DNA of 28,061 nt, taken from the IMG/VR virus record IMGVR_UViG_3300036956_000151; one strand, 5' to 3'. The position numbers were made by a program, and so were the translations under genes. The notes under the pieces were generated by a model. The model had not been told where the DNA came from. It made no database searches and saw only the letters and a list, made by a program, of their open reading frames with translations. Of this stretch, positions 3,372-27,660 are shown one piece after another (the first letter of the stretch is position 1; each line of letters opens with the position of its first letter). Source of the DNA: a virus. Lineage: Duplodnaviria; Heunggongvirae; Uroviricota; Caudoviricetes.

Positions 3372-3580
3372 GGTGGCTGCTCCTTGTGTGCGGTGATGTT
3401 CTCCGCAACCCCTTCCTACGGGGGCGGCGGAACCGTGCGGGGCTAGGAATACCGGACACAAGGAACCGGCCAGCCTCGCGGCTGCCCCACACGGCCCGCC
3501 ATTGAACAGGCGTCGCCATGCTTACCGACGTAAAAAAACCGCTTGCGCGGCCCTGTCGGCCTTGTGATTTCCGGGTTCCT
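3372..3580 (-). promoter_or_regulatory. Conserved ~200-bp structured non-coding leader (module 1), homologous to 15029-15235 in element B; possible promoter/5'-UTR or small RNA
   Basis: Alignable by eye with element B (shared GTTCTCCGC, GAACCGTGC, CCATGCTTACCGACGTAAAAAAACCGC-type blocks); conserved stems with compensatory changes; ends in SD plus ATG. Confidence 0.4.
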
Positions 3581-5260: not shown

Positions 5261-5308
5261 GCCGATTTCAGCGCCGATTGACCGGCCGATTGACCGGCCG
5301 ATTGGCTG
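5261..5308. repeat. 12-bp tandem repeat GCCGATTGACCG, about four units, outer units degenerate
   Basis: GCCGATTTCAGC GCCGATTGACCG GCCGATTGACCG GCCGATTGGCTG. Confidence 0.6.
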
Positions 5309-5428
5309 CGCACCGAGCTGCGTACCACTGCCCTGCGTACCCGACTGCCGACGAAGGCCACGCCGCCAGCAGCGGCCACCAGTTCCAGAAAAGCGGCCTA
5401 CTCGCCAGCGTAGAGCTAGTAGCGGCCA

Positions 5429-5456
5429 CGCGTAAAAGTCGCGCCTTTCACGCGTG
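5429..5456. repeat. Second copy of the palindromic hairpin repeat (ACGCGTAAAAG-N6-CTTTCACGCGT)
   Basis: See 4769-4796. Confidence 0.6.
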
Positions 5457-5471
5457 ACGACGCGTGCGAGG

Positions 5472-5499
5472 GGAAGGAAGGAAGGAAGGAAGGAAGGAA
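5472..5499. repeat. (GGAA)7 tetranucleotide microsatellite
   Basis: Seven perfect GGAA units. Confidence 0.9.
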
Positions 5500-5771
5500 C
5501 TCTCTACGAGCGCGTTTGATGCGCCTGGCTACCTGCGCTTCCCTCAGACACGCAGTGCGTTCTTCGGTCTCCAGACGGGCGAGTGCACAGGCCATCCGGG
5601 CCAGGGTCAGAACTTACTGTTTCAGGCTGGCGGATTCTCGTTCCAGGGCGGCGAGTCGTTCAGCCTCCCCAAAACTCCCCAAAACCCCCCATTTATGGGT
5701 GCCGTCCTCCCCAAAACTCCCCACACCACCTTTAAGAGGTGGGGGGAAATGGGGACCATGTGGGGAATGGG

Positions 5772-7745
5772 TTACTTGAGCCACAGCCAGCCCTCCCGAA
5801 GGACGATGCAGCCACGGTTCACAAGTCCGGTAATGGCAAGCTGCGCCCTGTAACGTTTCTGGTCCGGGTCACATGCAAGGCGGGCGCGGGTCTTGTCGAT
5901 AGCCTCTTCCAGTTCAACGCAGGGCCGGCCAGGAGGTCCGCCAGCTTCCCCGAAGTGCCGCGACTCTTTCAGCAGGTCGCGCAGTGCGTCGAGGATGATT
6001 CGCTGATTCCCGCCGGTCGGCAGCTTCACCCGCCCCACGGCATCGGCGGCGCGCTCTTCGGGAACGACGCAGCAGCTTGTGATTTCGTCGCCGTCCTCGT
6101 CGGCCCCGATTTCCACCACTTCCAGCCGAAACGGTTTTCCCAGGTCGTCATTGCCATCCTTGCTCTTCGCGGCCGTCCATTCCCGGCGGTCGTCGGTGCG
6201 GCTCACCTCGATGGCGGCATCAAGCGCAGCGTGAAGGCTGGAATGCCCCCGCAGGCCCTTGGACGCATCCTTGCCGGTGTGATGCACCAGCAGCACCAGC
6301 CCGCCAAGCTCCGCCTGTAGCGCCTTCGTCGCGGCGATGATTTCGCCCATTGCGGCGGAGTCGTTCTCGTCGGCACCCGGCGCGGCGCGGTTCAGCGTGT
6401 CGAGGGCCAACACGCCACCCGAGTAACCGGCAGCGCGGGCGGCGCTCACAAGGTCGGCGCGGTCGGCAGCTTTGCGGATGTCGAGCGGTTGCAGCAGGAA
6501 GCGGAATGCGCCGGCAAGTGGGCCGTGTTTCTCTTGGTGCGCCTGGACGCGTTGCGAGATGCCGGCCTCACCCTCAAGGGCAACATACAGCACTGGGGCG
6601 GCCTTCACGCGGCACCCGAACCACGGCCGGCCAGCGGCGACAGCGGCGAGCATGTCGAGCGCCAGGAAGGATTTGCCGGACCCGCTTGGGCCATACAACG
6701 CGGCAATCCCTTCCTCCGGGAGCACACCACGCACCCGCCAGCGGACAGGGGGCAGCGCGGCCAGTTCAGACGGTGCCAGCAGCCGGAAGCGTTGCGAGTG
6801 CTTCTTCGGATTGGCCAGCAGTGCGGCCAGGGCGTCGAGGCCGTCCCGCTGGTGCATGTCGTTGGCGTCAAAGTTGGCGGGCGAGCCTTCCGGCATTTCC
6901 ACCCATGCGGCGGCGGTGTCCTTGGCGATGCGGGCGCAATGCGACTCCTTGCCGGCATCGGCCACCAACACCCGGCGGGCCAGCGGGTAGCGGTCGGCCA
7001 GCGCCTTGGATGCGGCTTCCATCCGGCCGGCACCGAAGCAGACCGCGGCCGGCGCGTTCGCGGCCTGGTGGCAGCTCCACGCCTGCCCGACGCCCTCGCA
7101 CAGGTAGAGCGTGACGCCTGCGCCCTGGTGCGGGATGCGCCCCACCACGAACAGGCCGTCCATCGGCAGGCCGGGGGCGTTCAGTTTCTTGCCATCGGCC
7201 GGCGGGATGAATTGCGCGCTCTTCAGGGTGCCGTCAATCGCGTAGCACGGCACCACGAGATAGCCGGCCACCGCCTCGCGGGCGATGGTCAGCGGGCCGC
7301 CATAGACGCGCAGGCCGGCGGGTAGGCCATGCTTGCGGGCAATGTAGCCGTGTTCCGCCGTCGCTGGTGCGCAGGATGCCCACAGGGCGGCCACGTCGAG
7401 CGGCGGAGCCTTGGACGGGGCTTCGTGCATCCGGCGCTCGGTCGTGCGTTGTGGGCGGTTCTGGTAAGTCTGGCGCGGTGCGTCGTCGCTCCATCCAGCG
7501 GCGCGGGCCAGTGCGAAGAGCGTACCGGCCTGGATGCCGCCATCCTCGCGGATGCTCCGCCAGACGGCGCGTGCGTCGGCCTCGTTGCGATAGTTGCCGG
7601 CTCCGGCGCTCCAGTCATGGAAGTCCTCGAAGTCGAGGCCGGCAGCCTTTGCAGCCATGCCAGCCCGGACCCATTCGGCGCGTTCGGCACCGGGGTCGAG
7701 GGCGTGCAAGGCAAAGCGGGCGCGGTCAAACTCGCGGGCATCCAT
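5772..7745 (-). CDS. Primase-helicase-type replication protein, 657 aa (PriCT-like N-terminus, Toprim-like centre, RecA-type ATPase C-terminus); ORF-track N-terminal 71 aa rejected
   Basis: MDAREFDRARFALHALDP...GLDFEDFHDWSAG; CEGVGQAW and VLVADAGKE; Walker A YGPSGSGKSFLALD and VLLVHHTGKD; ATG overlaps upstream stop (ATGA). Confidence 0.85.
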   Translation of the reverse strand: MDAREFDRARFALHALDPGAERAEWVRAGMAAKAAGLDFEDFHDWSAGAGNYRNEADARAVWRSIREDGGIQAGTLFALARAAGWSDDAPRQTYQNRPQRTTERRMHEAPSKAPPLDVAALWASCAPATAEHGYIARKHGLPAGLRVYGGPLTIAREAVAGYLVVPCYAIDGTLKSAQFIPPADGKKLNAPGLPMDGLFVVGRIPHQGAGVTLYLCEGVGQAWSCHQAANAPAAVCFGAGRMEAASKALADRYPLARRVLVADAGKESHCARIAKDTAAAWVEMPEGSPANFDANDMHQRDGLDALAALLANPKKHSQRFRLLAPSELAALPPVRWRVRGVLPEEGIAALYGPSGSGKSFLALDMLAAVAAGRPWFGCRVKAAPVLYVALEGEAGISQRVQAHQEKHGPLAGAFRFLLQPLDIRKAADRADLVSAARAAGYSGGVLALDTLNRAAPGADENDSAAMGEIIAATKALQAELGGLVLLVHHTGKDASKGLRGHSSLHAALDAAIEVSRTDDRREWTAAKSKDGNDDLGKPFRLEVVEIGADEDGDEITSCCVVPEERAADAVGRVKLPTGGNQRIILDALRDLLKESRHFGEAGGPPGRPCVELEEAIDKTRARLACDPDQKRYRAQLAITGLVNRGCIVLREGWLWLK

Positions 7746-9456: not shown

Positions 9457-9477
9457 CGCGCTCCTTCAAGCGCCTTC

Positions 9478-9552
9478 AAAAGAGGCACCGCGCCAGGCGG
9501 GTGAAGGTTCCCGCTTTTCGGTTGGCCGACCTAGGCGCGGTGGTGGTACTCG
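9478..9552. terminator. Conserved nested-hairpin element (module 2): outer stem CACCGCGCC/GGCGCGGTG enclosing inner hairpin GCGGG-N8-CCCGC plus T4; terminator-like in both orientations; homologous copy at 25028-25104
   Basis: Near-identical flanks in both elements; inner stem differs by compensatory changes (GCGGG/CCCGC versus CGGGG/CCCCG). Confidence 0.45.
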
Positions 9553-9553
9553 G

Positions 9554-9934
9554 TCAGGCGGCAATCGCCTCATTCAAGGGACACGGCTGAATCAGCACGT
9601 CAGCCGGGAGGCCGAGGCCAGAAGACAGGCGGCGAATCATCGTCACCGACAGCGGGCGCGTCCGGTTCATGATGTCGGCCACCCTCCCCCGCGGGCCGAT
9701 GTAAGGCTCCAAGTCCTTGCGCGTCAATCCGCGGGACTCCATGACGTACTCAAGGAAGGCCACCGGGTCCGGGGCTTTAATCAGGAAGTGCGCCTTTTCG
9801 TAGGCTTCCACCAGCATGGCGAGCACCTCCAGGCGGTCGGCCTCGGGGCTTCCATCAGGGGCATCCCACAGGCGTTCGATATCGGCCAGGGCTTCGTTGT
9901 GCTCGGCTTCGGTTCGGATGGGCTTCAGTTCCAT
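9554..9934 (-). CDS. higA: HigA-family antitoxin (HTH), 126 aa
   Basis: Immediately downstream of the HigB-type toxin gene; AGGAG SD; C-terminal HTH-like segment LTRKDLEPYIGPRGRVADIMNRTRPLSVTMIRRL. Confidence 0.8.
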   Translation of the reverse strand: MELKPIRTEAEHNEALADIERLWDAPDGSPEADRLEVLAMLVEAYEKAHFLIKAPDPVAFLEYVMESRGLTRKDLEPYIGPRGRVADIMNRTRPLSVTMIRRLSSGLGLPADVLIQPCPLNEAIAA

Positions 9935-12406: not shown

Positions 12407-12502
12407 ACTCATAATCGCTTGGTCGCTGGTTCAAGTCCAGCACGGCCCACCATACGTATCAAGCACTTAGGCCAGCCTCACGAGGGCTGGCCTTTTGCTT
12501 TC
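12407..12502 (+). repeat. att direct repeat copy 2 (junction between element A and element B); tRNA 3' half only, no 5' half
   Basis: ACTCATAATCGCTTGGTCGCTGGTTCAAGTCCAGCACGGCCCACCA plus terminator; preceded by unrelated AT-rich sequence. Confidence 0.85.
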
Positions 12503-12510
12503 CGGCGCCG

Positions 12511-12529
12511 TGTAGCCACCATGTAGCCA
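12511..12529. promoter_or_regulatory. Two TGTAGCCA octamers at left end of element B; candidate arm-type sites
   Basis: Same motif at 27389-27425 (three copies, one inverted) upstream of the element B integrase. Confidence 0.4.
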
Positions 12530-15028: not shown

Positions 15029-15235
15029 GGTGATGTTCCTTATTTGCGGTCTTGTTCTCCGCTACCCAGCCGCCAAGCTGGGTGAGCAGAACCGTGCAGG
15101 TTGGCGGACCGGAATAAGGACCGGCAGGGTTTCCCCTCCCGCACGGCCCCGCCCAATGAGGCGATACCATGCTACGGACGTAAAAAAACCGCGCAGTGCG
15201 GCGGTTGTCCGCCTTATTTACCCGGGCCGCCAAGC
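15029..15235 (-). promoter_or_regulatory. Conserved structured leader (module 1), element B copy
   Basis: Homologous to 3372-3580; includes hairpin CCGC-N5-GCGG followed by A7 (terminator-like on the minus strand). Confidence 0.4.
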
Positions 15236-24245: not shown

Positions 24246-25001
24246 TCAAAGGAGCGCGGTTAGCTCGCTCCAACGGTCATCCCATTCGGGGAAATTCCGG
24301 CTAATGACGATGCGAGCGGCGCTCTTGGTGAGAAAGCCCTTGCTCACCATACAAAAAGCGAACTGAGCGGGGTCCCATAGTGCCGGCCGGCCTCCCCCTC
24401 GTCCTGGCGTGTATTCCCTGGCGGTCTTCATCCACCCCGGGCAATCAGAAATTGTTCGGGACCAATTCTCTGGCCTGGTGCTCTTGGGGTGTGGAAAAGC
24501 TTCCGACAGCTGTTTGGATGTTACGAGGCTGTGAGGGGGTGGCGATGCAGCGGGGATGCTTGGATTTAGCTCCTCAGGAGCGCTCCCCTGTCGGTCATTC
24601 GTACCAAGATCACTTCTCCGAACGAAAAGCCCCGTTCGCGTCACGACTGGCATTGGAATTACCTTCCCGTCGCCGCCCTTCTCCCAGCACGGCGCCCAAT
24701 ACGCCCCGTCCTTGTCTGGACGGGTGAAGGCGGGAACGTCGGTTCCGACTTCCCCATTCAGTGCACTCGCCAAGTCACGGCGGCTGACGGGAATGTAGAT
24801 GAAGTGCTTGCGCTGCGGCTCCTCGCTGAGCTTGACGATGGTTCCGTCAGGATTCGCACGGAGACGCACAGCCTGCCTATCCTCCCCGAGGAGAAAGTAG
24901 ACGCGCAACTGGCCTTCCAGGCCTGCTGCGATCAGGGAATCTTCTGAACAACAAAAGGTCTTGGCGGCTTCCGATAGTCGGATGTATTCGGGTTCAAACA
25001 T
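24246..25001 (-). CDS. Hypothetical protein, 251 aa; syntenic with the element A 197-aa protein and shares its GGRPA motif; internal ATG chosen because the upstream DNA is conserved module 2
   Basis: GGAG SD; module 2 immediately upstream. Confidence 0.6.
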   Translation of the reverse strand: MFEPEYIRLSEAAKTFCCSEDSLIAAGLEGQLRVYFLLGEDRQAVRLRANPDGTIVKLSEEPQRKHFIYIPVSRRDLASALNGEVGTDVPAFTRPDKDGAYWAPCWEKGGDGKVIPMPVVTRTGLFVRRSDLGTNDRQGSAPEELNPSIPAASPPPHSLVTSKQLSEAFPHPKSTRPENWSRTISDCPGWMKTAREYTPGRGGGRPALWDPAQFAFCMVSKGFLTKSAARIVISRNFPEWDDRWSELTALL

Positions 25002-25027
25002 TCTCGCGCTCCATCTGCGCACCCATC

Positions 25028-25104
25028 GAAAAAGGCACCGCGCCAGCGGGGCGATGGAATCCCCGTTTTCGGTTGGCCGACCTAGGCGCGGTGGTGGTGC
25101 TCGG
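25028..25104. terminator. Conserved nested-hairpin element (module 2), element B copy
   Basis: Outer stem CACCGCGCC/GGCGCGGTG, inner CGGGG-N9-CCCCG plus T4. Confidence 0.45.
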
Positions 25105-25359
25105 TCAGCTACGGTTCCGACGTGCAGCCTCGATGCCGGCCCGCAGTTCTTCGTCCGTGGCCGGGCGGTCGTCCTCGTCCTTACCGTCCCATACAAAGTG
25201 CTTTTCCGGAGAGATATTGCGGACCGCCGTAGCCAGTTCCTTACGCTGCTGTTCAGCCAGGGCAGAGAGCTCGTTGGCCTTCCGAAATGCCGGGTCGCCC
25301 TTGCTGGCTTCCTCGGCATAAGCGCGAGGGTCGAAGGAGCCGGGTTTGTAGTCGCTCAT
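25105..25359 (-). CDS. Hypothetical protein, 84 aa, charged; third gene coupled to the HigBA pair
   Basis: Strong SD GGAGAGGAG; begins about 20 nt after the antitoxin stop. Confidence 0.6.
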   Translation of the reverse strand: MSDYKPGSFDPRAYAEEASKGDPAFRKANELSALAEQQRKELATAVRNISPEKHFVWDGKDEDDRPATDEELRAGIEAARRNRS

Positions 25360-25381
25360 GGTTCGCTCCTCTCCTGCTCGG

Positions 25382-25690
25382 TCAGGCAGCTTCCGCGTGC
25401 ATTGGCCGAATCTCTCGTGCCACCTTCTCGCCTATTGCCGCCTCGGCCTGCTTCAGGTCAAAGGCTGTTTGCAGATTCATCCAGAATTGCGGCGTGGTGT
25501 CGAAGTAGCGGGCGAGGCGCAGGGCAGTGTCAGGCGTCACCGCCCGGCGCTCGCGCACGATGTCGTTAATGCGCGGGGCAGGAACGTGCAAATCCATTGC
25601 CAGGGCGTTGGCGCTGAGTCCAAGCGGCAGCAGGTATTCTTCCCGCAGAATCTCGCCCGGATGAATGGGGCGCATATTGTTCGTAGCCAT
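25382..25690 (-). CDS. higA: HigA-family antitoxin (XRE-type HTH), 102 aa
   Basis: IHPGEILREEYLLPLGLSANALAMDLHVPAPRINDIVRERRAVTPDTALRLARYF; GAGGGA SD. Confidence 0.8.
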   Translation of the reverse strand: MATNNMRPIHPGEILREEYLLPLGLSANALAMDLHVPAPRINDIVRERRAVTPDTALRLARYFDTTPQFWMNLQTAFDLKQAEAAIGEKVAREIRPMHAEAA

Positions 25691-25701
25691 GTTCAAATCC
25701 C

Positions 25702-25983
25702 TCAGTGGTAATCCACGATTTCGACGCCCTCCGGCCCCGTAGCCGTCCAAACGAAGCACACGCGCCACTGGTCATTGATGCGGATGCTGTGCTGTCCGGC
25801 TCGGTTCCCACTGAGCGCTTCGAGACGATTGCCCGGGGGCGAGCGCAAGTCCTTCAGCTCTTCGGCAGCATCAAGCATTTGCAGTTTTCGCTCTGCGACA
25901 GCTTCAATGTTCCGGAATCGCTTCGGGTGCAGCCCTTCGTAAAGGGCTTCGGTGTCTTCGCACCGAAATGAACGGATCGTCAT
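25702..25983 (-). CDS. higB: HigB killer-protein toxin (RelE/ParE superfamily), 93 aa
   Basis: MTIRSFRCEDTEALYEG...PPGNRLEALSGNRAGQHSIRINDQWRVCFVWTATGPEGVEIVDYH. Confidence 0.85.
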   Translation of the reverse strand: MTIRSFRCEDTEALYEGLHPKRFRNIEAVAERKLQMLDAAEELKDLRSPPGNRLEALSGNRAGQHSIRINDQWRVCFVWTATGPEGVEIVDYH

Positions 25984-26007
25984 GGTCTCAGAATAGAACG
26001 CGTTACG

Positions 26008-26026
26008 TTTAACGTCAATCGTTAAA
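26008..26026. promoter_or_regulatory. Inverted repeat TTTAACG-N5-CGTTAAA upstream of the toxin gene; likely TA operator
   Basis: Between toxin start (25983) and integrase stop (26041); same placement as in element A. Confidence 0.35.
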
Positions 26027-26040
26027 GTTGTAAATGGAGG

Positions 26041-27369
26041 TTACTTGACGGCCCTGAGGACTGTCGCGGCCCCCTCTGTCGGCTGCTCGATGCCGGCCTG
26101 TTCCAGAATCCACGCCTCAATCTTGATGTGCCACATACGTAGCAGGTCGAGGGGCCGGCGGCGGTAGTGCTTTTCAGCCAGCGCAGACGGCTTGTGCCCT
26201 TGAATCTGCGCCACCACGCCCACCGGGCATTCCACCCATTCGGACAGGGTGCCGAAGGAGCGGCGCAAGTCATGCAGTGAGAACGGCGGCAGGCCGGCGG
26301 CTTCCATCGCGTTCTTGTGGGGCTTGAGCGGCTCCTGGAGGCGGCCAGATGCCGCGGAGGGGCTGGAGAACACCCACTCATTGCGGCGCGGCAGGGCTGC
26401 CAGCAAGGCCGCAACATAGGGCGTCAGCGGGATGATGCGCTGCCCTTCCACTTTGTCCCGGATGGTCAGGGACTTCCATTGAAAATCGATGCAATCCCAC
26501 GTCAGGCCGGCGAGCTCTTCGCGGCGGGCTCCGGTAAGCAGCAGGGTTTGCAGGTAGGCCACGTGCACCGGATTGCCCAGCTTCCTGACGTGCTCGAACC
26601 ACAGCGGCAACTGCTCCCGCTGCAGGCTGTCGCCCTTGGCTCTGGCCGCCTGCACCTGGTCCCGCACTTCGCTGGTACGGCAGGCGTCGGCCCGGACAAG
26701 GCCGGCATACTCGGGCCGCTCGGCACACCAGCCAAGGAAGGCCCGCACCAAGCGGAAGTTCTTCGCTGCTTCGGTGGCCCCCCGGACGTTGTTCGCCTGC
26801 ATCCAGGCCGTTATGCACGCCGGCGTCAGGTCGATCAGGCAGACCGCCAGCAGCGGATGAACCATGCCCTGCAATGAGAACTCGCCCTGCCCCTTCTTGC
26901 GGCCTCGCGTGATGCGCTCGCCACCGGGCTTGATGGCCTTCTCGTGGTCCCGCTTGGACGATTCGCCCCACTTGTGGGAGCGGGCGGCAACGTAGGCGGC
27001 CCACGCCTCGCCAACGGTCACGGACTGGCGGCGCTGCTCTTCCTGCCCTGCCACCACTGCGGCCTTCTTGGCCTCCACTGCGGCCAGCTTGTCGGCTTTC
27101 TCCTGCCGGGGATCGGTGCCCTGGTCGACAACGGTTTGCAACCGGCGAGCTTCGGCGCGGGCATCGTCCAGGTTCCACGCCCGCACGTCGCCGATGGTTA
27201 CGCGGATTGTTTGCCGGTTTAGCTTGGCCTCGAAGATGAACGACTTCGCGCCCGTGGTCGCACGCACAGCGAGGCGCGGCGCGTCGGTGTCCCAGAGGAA
27301 GGATTGCTTGGCGTCGGCGGGGCAGGAGAAGCGGCGGATTCGGTCGGGCGTGAGGCGTTCGCGTTGCAT
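26041..27369 (-). CDS. int: Tyrosine recombinase, P4-type integrase (element B), 442 aa
   Basis: Collinear with the element A integrase with long identical stretches (HDLRRSFGT, VGVVAQIQGHKPSALAEKHYRRRPLDLL); GGAG SD; adjacent to att copy 3. Confidence 0.9.
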   Translation of the reverse strand: MQRERLTPDRIRRFSCPADAKQSFLWDTDAPRLAVRATTGAKSFIFEAKLNRQTIRVTIGDVRAWNLDDARAEARRLQTVVDQGTDPRQEKADKLAAVEAKKAAVVAGQEEQRRQSVTVGEAWAAYVAARSHKWGESSKRDHEKAIKPGGERITRGRKKGQGEFSLQGMVHPLLAVCLIDLTPACITAWMQANNVRGATEAAKNFRLVRAFLGWCAERPEYAGLVRADACRTSEVRDQVQAARAKGDSLQREQLPLWFEHVRKLGNPVHVAYLQTLLLTGARREELAGLTWDCIDFQWKSLTIRDKVEGQRIIPLTPYVAALLAALPRRNEWVFSSPSAASGRLQEPLKPHKNAMEAAGLPPFSLHDLRRSFGTLSEWVECPVGVVAQIQGHKPSALAEKHYRRRPLDLLRMWHIKIEAWILEQAGIEQPTEGAATVLRAVK

Positions 27370-27554: not shown

Positions 27555-27660
27555 CGACTCATAATCGCTTGGTCGCTGGTTCAAGTCCAGCACGGCCCAC
27601 CAATAGCATCAAGCACTTAGGCCAGCCTCACGAGGGCTGGCCTTTTGCTTTCCGGCGCCG
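27555..27660 (+). repeat. att direct repeat copy 3 (right end of element B); tRNA 3' half plus terminator, a few substitutions after CCA
   Basis: Same 46-nt tRNA 3' segment and terminator; shares the tail CGGCGCCG with copy 2. Confidence 0.85.

Follow-up and report, generated by a model that had tools for sequence, protein, structure and literature searches.

The locus examined here raises the question of whether a small gene directly downstream of a toxin-antitoxin (TA) pair belongs to that pair or merely lies beside it. The gene, orf84, encodes 84 amino acids and follows the higBA genes of an integrative element (element B) in a 28,061-nt stretch of viral DNA (IMG/VR record IMGVR_UViG_3300036956_000151), hereafter called the window. 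A second element of the same kind (element A) is present in the same stretch, and related loci (L numbers) and proteins (P numbers) were used for comparison.

The higBA-orf84 array and its satellite context

The array of element B is bounded on its left by a tyrosine integrase gene (442 aa, 26041–27369, minus strand; PF00589, 1.4e-13; PF13356, 5e-11), which forms the edge of the variable TA slot. The pair that follows has the layout of a type II HigBA module, with the RelE-fold toxin gene higB first (93 aa, 25702–25983; PF05015, 2.7e-17) and the helix-turn-helix (HTH) antitoxin gene higA second (102 aa, 25382–25690; TIGR02607, 6e-34, also PF01381), separated by 11 nt. Both genes and orf84 lie on the minus strand. 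Compared with a copy of the array in Zoogloea oleivorans, dN/dS was 0.06 for higB and 0.02 for higA.

The initial annotation placed an 84-aa reading frame about 20 nt after the antitoxin stop, behind a strong Shine-Dalgarno sequence and an ATG, and this was borne out. The higA stop codon TGA (25382–25384) is followed after 22 nt by the ATG of orf84 at 25359, and the gene (25105–25359, stop included) ends with a TGA at 25105–25107. Its ribosome-binding site, GGAGAGGAG (25366–25374, minus strand, read from the sequence), is situated 6 nt 5' of the ATG and was invariant across all aligned orf84 loci and loci of the antitoxin gene HTH109 (see below). Besides the ORF call and homology, the GC content by codon position (0.68/0.48/0.69) supported the gene, resembling that of higA and higB and unlike that of the overlapping frames. 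The product is indeed charged, as had been noted (39% charged residues), with a pI of 5.2 and a GRAVY of -1.2. Exactly the same protein was called as a gene on at least seven metagenome contigs with neighbours identical in kind, and one further relative (95% identical) had the same higB-higA-orf84 order; the copy counts from the metagenome scan are lower bounds. A scan of viral contigs yielded a single, distant relative.

The sole promoter-like site of the array in a consensus scan is upstream of higB, a candidate sigma-70-like promoter (TTGACG-17-TATTCT, 25990–26018, minus strand). An inverted repeat read from the sequence, TTAACG-N5-CGTTAA (26008–26024), overlaps its -35 element and is kept in L023; it may be the operator of HigA. 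In a terminator scan, the first terminator-like hairpin was found 3' of orf84, where a hairpin with a T-run (25036–25048, minus strand) falls within an int-alpA RNA. The proposed common operon therefore stands as physical coupling, and consensus scans for promoters and terminators predict that orf84 is most likely carried on the higBA transcript.

The int-alpA RNA itself (25023–25092, minus strand) was identified with Rfam family RF02996 at 63 bits, against a gathering score of 35.8. Its identification rests on the Rfam covariance model and not on thermodynamics, single-sequence folding of the conserved segment 3' of orf84 being no better than that of shuffled sequences (z 0.06). The RNA is part of the conserved backbone of the element and probably marks the end of the higBA-orf84 transcript. 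Module 2, which the initial annotation placed directly after orf84, is not there; the RNA comes next and after it a 251-aa gene (24246–25001, minus strand) that matched no TA, Pfam, NCBIfam, PHROG or PADLOC family and was given the same start by gene callers in related contigs.

Element A offers a parallel within the window. Its integrase gene shares 76% nucleotide identity with that of element B, and its int-alpA RNA (9473–9541, 71.9 bits) is 83% identical to the element B copy. The element A array consists of a HigB-like/HigA pair and then a PF09907 HigB/HTH pair, and the earlier comparison, in which this second pair occupies the position corresponding to orf84, was right. Both arrays finish at one and the same junction. 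The element, which also encodes a C4/CI-type antisense RNA and an AAA_25/DnaB_C replication gene, is best described as a P4/PICI-like integrative satellite, with the TA array in a variable slot between the integrase gene and the int-alpA RNA.

Two antitoxin genes as sources of orf84

The tight placement of orf84 on the higBA strand, with neither a promoter-like site nor a terminator in between, and its repeated occurrence in the same order on other contigs would suit a genuine third member of HigBA, either chaperone-like or a regulator of HigA or HigB. Its homology points elsewhere. Searches of Pfam, NCBIfam, PHROG and PADLOC returned nothing above threshold for orf84, including any SecB-like chaperone or DNA-binding regulator family, and no Rfam family matched the orf84 segment. 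A match to LPD37 (E 0.011, 15.7 bits against a cut-off of 27) was below threshold and was treated as noise; the same weak match was also seen in P0003. The initial annotation had likewise found the protein to resemble nothing recognisable, a description that did not survive profile comparison, which revealed the N-terminal half of the antitoxin BrnA joined to the start of a Gp49-type XRE antitoxin. Neither parent belongs to the SecB-like chaperones or to known third regulators, which argues against a third component.

The BrnA-derived segment comprises codons 38–83 (25111–25248, minus strand; hhalign probability 99.5%, E 5e-23), and it aligned to BrnA profile positions 10–55 with 61% identity. 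The best distant matches were 104-aa BrnA proteins (PF14384) that aligned only to residues of about 38–84. The segment contains the conserved FVWDGKDEDDRP motif of the family and the helix after it. The N-terminal motif of the BrnA subfamily, (F/Y)VWDGKDEDDRP(A/L)T.EEL, is present; its invariant core VWDG.DEDDRP is complete in the window copy, as are all invariant columns (V56, G59, D61, E62, D63, R65, P66, E71, and L72). Several other matches were set aside. In an exhaustive search of representative sequences, which gave 74 matches, the second-best, P0043 (4065 aa, 9 repeats), was spurious, pairing "FVWDGKD" with Ig-like repeats in a very large surface protein. Matches of 52–90 aa were not accepted as a stand-alone family, as many look like truncated or frameshifted BrnA among the 20 of 74 sequences that were read. 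A BrnA-like match at 24304–24444 (E 0.0055), in another frame of the 251-aa gene, was judged to be due to chance and to a GC-rich RGRPAG string.

The end of orf84 (...AARRNRS*) falls just before the RGRP-KEQVAIRID...WQTR region of BrnA. The ribbon-helix-helix domain of BrnA, on which PF14384 is defined, is C-terminal and binds the operator (PMC11980606). In an AlphaFold2 model of BrnA this domain, at residues 63–101, was the high-confidence part, and it is missing from orf84, as judged by the end of the alignment and by the AlphaFold2 model of the protein. Since the domain is missing, BrnA-style operator binding by orf84 is impossible. PF14384 gave no match to orf84 even at E ≤ 1 because only about 20 of the 68 profile positions are left, while the full-length BrnA relative P0014 scored 78 bits over residues 35–98. 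The homology search and structure prediction proposed earlier thus depicted a truncated BrnA-like mosaic without a fold (pLDDT 72, pTM 0.30), in which AlphaFold2 placed three helices but no globular structure, and neither this model nor hhalign indicated a DNA-binding domain.

The toxin partner of BrnA is absent from the window, where phmmer with BrnT in six frames gave a best E of 2.1, and the gene upstream of orf84 is higA rather than brnT (PF04365). A true BrnT-BrnA pair was found in L012. Sibling islands have complete BrnT-BrnA modules at the same integrase-adjacent position, and the sibling BrnA motif DNA is 93% identical to that of orf84 over 54 nt. Neither single-sequence nor profile searches found a solved structure for BrnA; by domain logic, it is presumably the N-terminal half that contacts the toxin. 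Compared with the BrnT/BrnA system of Brucella abortus (PF14384/DUF4415), orf84 has the VWDG.DEDDRP...EL motif and the next helix, but lacks the RGRP linker, the ribbon-helix-helix domain and brnT, and it carries a foreign N-terminus of 30 residues.

This N-terminus (codons 1–30, 25271–25359, minus strand) comes from the start of HTH109, an XRE-HTH antitoxin gene. From 25271 upward the window was 94.5% identical in nucleotide sequence to L015, which carries a higA-HTH109 locus, while from 25263 downward it was 89% identical to L014. At the protein level, residues 1–39 were 73% identical to P0036, and the similarity was confined to these residues. Genes of the HTH109 family are located downstream of Gp49 toxins, their usual partner. 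Relative to such Gp49 (PF05973)/XRE-HTH modules, orf84 shares the 30 codons, the ribosome-binding site and the 22-nt spacer (about 94% nucleotide identity), but HTH109 residues of about 40–95, which include the HTH, are swapped for BrnA sequence, no XRE HTH domain (PF01381/PF13560) was matched, and there is no Gp49 toxin.

By its sequence, then, orf84 was pieced together by recombination from two orphaned antitoxin genes, and we regard its identity as a mosaic or truncated antitoxin as very likely. An XRE antitoxin gene of the Gp49-partner type supplied codons 1–30 and the ribosome-binding site. Codons 38–83 are the N-terminal half of BrnA, cut off by the junction exactly before the ribbon-helix-helix.

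An optional cassette at a repeated junction

The recombination boundaries of orf84 can be located precisely. The gene lies within a 277-bp cassette flanked by exact 11-bp direct repeats, CTGACCGAGCA. Copy 1 (25375–25385, minus strand) is the left cassette edge and holds the higA stop, and copy 2 (25098–25108, minus strand) is the right edge and gives the stop of orf84. We rejected the junction motif as an integrase att core, as the att repeats consist of the 3' part of a tRNA-Met and a terminator and are unrelated to it.

The conservation of the three-gene arrangement, which had been suggested as a check, was found wanting, with orf84 absent, replaced or deleted in relatives. Among the ten contexts displayed for the identical HigA protein, eight lacked orf84, and in those eight TGACCGAGCA of higA runs directly into the int-alpA RNA. 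The antitoxin preceding orf84 is a different one in Zoogloea, L017 and L014, and the order in Zoogloea oleivorans is higB, higA, an orphan HigA and then orf84. HTH109 fills the same post-higA slot in L015 and L023, and in L023 it is accompanied by the second module of element A. In L045 and L046, an out-of-frame deletion between CCGGCAT repeats kills orf84 and leaves HigB and HigA intact. The case for a third component is largely refuted by this missing co-conservation, and we give it almost no weight. Of the suggestion of a third TA gene, the relation to TA systems holds through the BrnA and HTH109 ancestry, while membership in the HigBA module does not. HigBA can in all likelihood dispense with orf84.

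Tripartite TA systems, such as HigBA-SecB of Mycobacterium, paaR-paaA-parE, omega-epsilon-zeta and pasABC, resemble the array in having three small genes on the same strand with short spacers. However, the third gene of those systems accompanies the pair and is a member of a defined family, a SecB-like chaperone or a regulator, whereas orf84 is an antitoxin fragment that most copies of this higBA lack. The array also resembles the hotspots of P4-like satellites and PICIs (int-alpA-pri; PMC13612085), as it occupies a hypervariable position flanked by int and the int-alpA RNA or alpA. It differs from them in that a short repeated junction, found at each antitoxin stop codon, sets the limits of the slot, a feature of which a limited look at the literature found no description. 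Variable accessory or defence hotspots beside the integrase of P4-like satellites have reportedly been described by Rousset et al. in 2022.

Toxin-less antitoxins are enriched in these arrays, including HigA-like2 in Zoogloea, HTH109 in L023 and HTH37 in L012. The slot could be pictured as a dedicated cassette-capture site, where TA modules and toxin-less antitoxins are stacked at a junction of the form (G)CC-TGA-CCGAGCA and where orf84-type peptides are selected to soak up BrnT or Gp49 toxins; we consider this improbable. Such a junction would also supply the stop codon of each gene. The peptides would be antitoxin "heads" without DNA-binding domains, and the toxins would come from rival islands or phages.

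Selection on orf84 and its probable status

Substitution patterns bear on whether the mosaic has a function. Against the Zoogloea oleivorans copy, dN/dS of orf84 was 0.23 in frame and 0.92 to 2.0 in four other frames, although the antisense frame that shares its wobble positions fitted comparably (0.27). The whole-gene ratio of 0.21–0.23 was significantly below 1 (p about 0.002–0.004). The BrnA-derived part taken by itself had a ratio of 0.37, which was not significant (p = 0.11), compared with 0.02 for higA. The whole-gene ratio may reflect a degree of purifying selection acting on a translated product, but most of its signal resides in the 5' part, where it may be a legacy of functional HTH109 alleles. 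At least four divergent copies retain an intact ORF, namely the window, P0001 and Zoogloea/L017 copies together with a shortened form in L014, and near-invariant family residues are changed in two of the loci (W57R in L014 and A74V in L017). P0004, a related 61-aa BrnA remnant from a sister lineage, is a pseudogene with a 4-nt frameshift and recognisable BrnA sequence past its stop, and it adjoins a frameshifted higA.

One alternative is that orf84 works as a mini-antitoxin without a toxin of its own, serving as a toxin sponge or an anti-addiction peptide that would shield the host or the satellite from BrnT-type toxins of competing sibling islands or phages. Such a peptide would keep the toxin-neutralising N-terminus of BrnA, and perhaps that of a Gp49-type antitoxin too, and would be expressed constitutively from the higBA operon without a DNA-binding domain. 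The whole-gene ratio, the intact invariant motif, the strong and conserved ribosome-binding site, the sibling islands with complete BrnT-BrnA and closely similar motif DNA, and the abundance of toxin-less antitoxins in the arrays are all consistent with it. Chromosomal ccd of Erwinia chrysanthemi is an example of an anti-addiction system. Like orphan and anti-addiction antitoxins, orf84 is toxin-less, is borne on a mobile element beside intact TA modules and could in principle, by analogy, neutralise toxins encoded elsewhere. Surveys of orphan antitoxins exist for Klebsiella and E. coli (PMC7192599, PMC10790755), and anti-addiction or counter-defence roles are documented for such genes. Known anti-addiction antitoxins are full-length, whereas orf84 combines two parents and has no DNA-binding domain. 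The non-significant ratio of the BrnA-derived codons, the disrupted or deleted natural alleles, the replacements at near-invariant positions and the frameshifted parallel remnant speak against the idea, as do the lack of BrnT in the window and the presumptive nature of BrnT binding by the N-terminal half. In addition, an antitoxin without its dimerising ribbon-helix-helix domain probably has reduced avidity and stability. Overall, we regard a selected mini-antitoxin as possible but rather unlikely.

It could also be argued that the ORF is untranslated and that the 277-bp segment matters only as RNA or DNA, as a 3' spacer before the int-alpA RNA or as a recombination substrate. The junction repeats that bound the segment, the structured RNA immediately 3' of it, the product without a fold and the existence of disrupted alleles would fit this proposal. 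The conserved ribosome-binding site and ATG do not, nor do the coding-like GC content and frame-specific substitutions, though both of the latter may come from the parent genes, and the segment itself belongs to no Rfam family. We hold this explanation to be a poor prospect.

The explanation that we favour, by some way short of certainty, is that orf84 is a relic left by the turnover of antitoxin cassettes in a P4/PICI-like satellite, transcribed together with higBA but not part of HigBA; that the relic has no selected function is a slightly weaker preference. The gene is most likely read through from the higBA promoter, with the transcript ending at the int-alpA hairpin, and the strong ribosome-binding site would probably direct synthesis of an acidic, largely unfolded peptide. 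Any residual activity of this peptide would be binding of a BrnT-type toxin, not of HigB. As an optional mosaic cassette, orf84 is therefore an ordinary by-product of TA cassette turnover in a mobile island.

For annotation, this means that a hypothetical protein in a TA operon can be described as a truncated, chimeric BrnA-like remnant, and a false call of a tripartite HigBA is avoided. The locus provides a clean, datable example of the turnover of TA cargo beside the integrase of a P4/PICI-like satellite, where toxins disappear and the antitoxin genes left behind are shortened and joined to one another, all at a single short repeated junction. If the fragment does neutralise BrnT, it would be a naturally occurring minimal antitoxin and an instance of anti-addiction between elements.

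Satellite setting and gene order of element B

Two integrative elements resembling satellites, A and B, lie in tandem at tRNA-Met (1902-1978) in the window, with att repeats of roughly 100-120 bp (1931-2051, 12407-12525, and 27555-27655) that extend from the anticodon loop through the 3' end of the tRNA and include the terminator. Both elements carry an integrase gene (76% nucleotide identity between the two) together with a toxin-antitoxin array, an int-alpA RNA, and an antisense RNA of the C4/CI type; on related contigs, AlpA and replication genes of the AAA_25/DnaB_C kind were found. This organisation is the int-alpA-pri layout known from PICI/P4-like satellites (PMC13612085), and the variable slot that separates int from the int-alpA RNA is filled by the toxin-antitoxin array. 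The C4 RNAs (3420-3506 and 15078-15160, minus strand; RF01695, 67.5 and 48.1 bits) suggest that these satellites have immunity RNAs of the P4/P1 type.

On the minus strand of element B, the integrase gene (ending at 26041) is followed by higB (25702-25983; 93 aa; PF05015 at 2.7e-17), higA (25382-25690; 102 aa; TIGR02607 at 6e-34, and PF01381), and, after a 22-nt spacer CCGAGCAGGAGAGGAGCGAACC behind the higA stop, the 84-codon orf84 (ATG at 25359, end at 25105). Codon-position GC in orf84 was 0.68/0.48/0.69, as in higA and higB, a pattern absent from overlapping frames. On seven metagenome contigs, gene callers predicted the identical protein in the order int-higB-higA-orf84-251 aa, an arrangement also found for a 95% identical copy. 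The spacer, the codon-position GC, and the recurrence on seven contigs bear out the initial annotation that a real 84-aa gene lies tightly behind the antitoxin, and its comparison with element A was right (a PF05015/HigA pair, then a PF09907/HTH pair). It was mistaken in placing a second module right after orf84: an int-alpA RNA comes next (25023-25092, minus strand; Rfam RF02996, 63 bits against a gathering score of 35.8), then a 251-aa ORF without a family match.

The second int-alpA RNA (9473-9541, minus strand; RF02996, 71.9 bits) is 83% identical to the first, with pairing-preserving changes in the inner hairpin (CGGGG/CCCCG versus GCGGG/CCCGC), and the arrays of both elements stop exactly at the RNA's 5' flank. 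The gene directly past the RNA marks a second hypervariable slot (24246-25001, minus strand, in the window; 5298-6356, minus strand, in the Zoogloea oleivorans Buc contig L016; the next genes in L054-L063). Its product has 251 aa in element B and 197 aa in element A, and ranges from 169 to 619 aa in relatives; Pfam matched none of them. The 352-aa Zoogloea protein shares only an ~85-aa C-terminal region with the 251-aa one (36% identity, E 8e-16), with no similarity detected between their N-terminal parts.

Transcription of orf84 would start from the sole promoter-like site, TTGACG-17-TATTCT (26018-25990), and would end at a hairpin and T-run within the int-alpA RNA (25048-25036). An inverted repeat, TTAACG-N5-CGTTAA (26008-26024), overlaps the -35 of this site ahead of higB, is kept in the related locus L023, and may be a HigA operator.

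The junction motif, and the independence of orf84 from HigBA

We examined loci carrying the identical 102-aa HigA protein, with ten distinct contexts among the matches listed. Eight of the ten were plain int-higB-higA without orf84, in which the stop context GCC-TGA-CCGAGCA runs directly into CCACCACCGCGCCTAGG..., the int-alpA RNA; the remaining two, both window-type, carried orf84. Within the window, CTGACCGAGCA occurs twice (25375-25385 and 25098-25108), flanking a 277-bp insert that contains the ribosome-binding site and orf84, an optional cassette. The Zoogloea contig L016 (NZ_SDKK01000017.1) has the order higB-higA-second toxin-less HigA-orf84, and orf84 has the same upstream partner in L017 and L014. 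This toxin-less antitoxin gene (6731-7039, minus strand; TIGR02607, 2e-26) is a second case of an orphan antitoxin stacked in an array. In L023, the slot behind higA holds HTH109, a 109-aa XRE-HTH antitoxin gene, and the second module of element A. An out-of-frame deletion between two CCGGCAT repeats takes out most of orf84 in L045 (1446-2130) and L046 and leaves HigB and HigA intact; in both loci an insertion sequence (HTH_Tnp_1 transposase) sits just after CGCCTAGG, inside the int-alpA RNA.

The initial annotation had made orf84 a third HigBA gene. It is not conserved in homologous operons, since it is missing, swapped or deleted beside homologous higBA, and it is not part of HigBA; a partnership is extremely improbable. 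The third gene of tripartite toxin-antitoxin systems is by definition co-conserved, and orf84 is not.

In toxin-antitoxin modules, the last gene nearly always ends in the motif (G)CC-TGA-CCGAG(C/T)A (minus strand at 25375-25385, 25098-25108, and 9547-9557; also L016, L023, L014, L015, L012, and L053). It is common to the unrelated antitoxin genes HigA, second HigA, HTH109, PF09907 partner, HTH_37, and orf84. In the examined loci with integrase-adjacent arrays, each occurrence fell on an in-frame stop, and a chromosomal HTH109 copy (L047) had no such motif. Lying just 5' of the int-alpA RNA, the motif resembles a cassette boundary or a recombination junction; this short junction, common to antitoxin genes that are otherwise unrelated and placed at their 3' ends, is a more unusual item than orf84 itself.

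Two antitoxin parents of orf84

Residues 1-39 of orf84 share 73% identity with the N-terminus of P0036, an HTH109 protein. From inside higA to orf84 codon 30 the window matches the higA-HTH109 contig L015 (94.5% identity in DNA); starting at codon 33 and continuing to the next gene, the match is to another contig, L014 (89%), which makes orf84 a recombinant. The HTH109 family is large (816 matches). In chromosomal and island contexts its genes lie directly downstream of, and overlap, a Gp49 (PF05973) RelE-superfamily toxin gene, which makes HTH109 the antitoxin in a Gp49/HTH module. L015 and L023 carry HTH109 without its toxin behind the same higBA.

A word-indexed search with orf84 returned two near-identical 84-aa proteins, then ~35 matches annotated as the type II antitoxin BrnA/DUF4415 (PF14384), mostly of 93-128 aa, which cover just its second half. 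In profile comparison, residues 38-83 corresponded to BrnA positions 10-55 (61% identity, probability 99.5%, E 5e-23), with every invariant column of the BrnA N-terminal half (VWDG.DEDDRP...EL) kept. PF14384 spans BrnA residues 35-98, and Pfam misses orf84 because the protein (...AARRNRS*) reaches neither the RGRP linker nor the strand-helix-helix part. The ribbon-helix-helix domain of BrnA is C-terminal and binds the operator (PMC11980606). This C-terminal domain is the confident part of the BrnA AlphaFold2 model (pLDDT 87-89 at residues 71-100); the orf84 model has three helices and no compact fold (pTM 0.30). Compared with BrnA, the closest known family, orf84 keeps the N-terminal motif but falls below the Pfam threshold, has lost the DNA-binding domain, and is not linked to brnT, which is absent from the window. 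It is a BrnA-derived fragment, not a BrnA antitoxin.

Decay or residual function

With 39% charged residues and a pI of 5.2, the orf84 peptide would be acidic, mostly disordered and unable to autoregulate. The toxin-neutralising region of type II antitoxins normally lies outside the DNA-binding domain, so any leftover activity would be expected to be the binding of BrnT-type toxins. Sibling islands do encode such toxins at this position (L012: int-BrnT-BrnA). A functional decoy of this kind is possible, if rather unlikely. In its favour, dN/dS of the whole gene was 0.23 against Zoogloea (12 synonymous and 10 non-synonymous changes; p=0.0015) and 0.21 against L017, and was lowest in the annotated frame. 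The HTH109-derived 5' part had a ratio of 0.11, which may be inherited from functional parent alleles, and the BrnA-derived part 0.37 (p=0.11), compared with 0.02 for higA and 0.06 for higB. By our reading, these ratios suggest relaxed or weak constraint. We think it improbable that orf84 is untranslated.

Broken relatives tell for decay and against function. Some database variants of orf84 are frameshifted or deleted (P0026 and P0040), the L014 copy has in-frame deletions in its N-terminal part and W57R in the near-invariant motif, and the L017 copy has A74V. P0004, a related 61-aa BrnA remnant that occurs in 74 blocks of the collection, has lost 4 nt after GRGR, with BrnA sequence (KEQVAIRID...) recognisable out of frame past the stop. 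It adjoins a higA that a frameshift has broken into ORFs of 49 and 47 aa. On balance we lean towards orf84 being a relic.

Sibling arrays (L010/L007 2324-3154; L012 1899-3703) run int, Gp49, HTH_37, a frameshifted 61-aa BrnA remnant, an orphan HigA-like gene (102 aa), and a split higA (49 + 47 aa); in L012 a complete BrnT-BrnA pair replaces the Gp49 toxin, leaving HTH_37 orphaned. Orphan antitoxin genes and decaying ones are already known as a phenomenon, and orf84 is a new, well-documented example.
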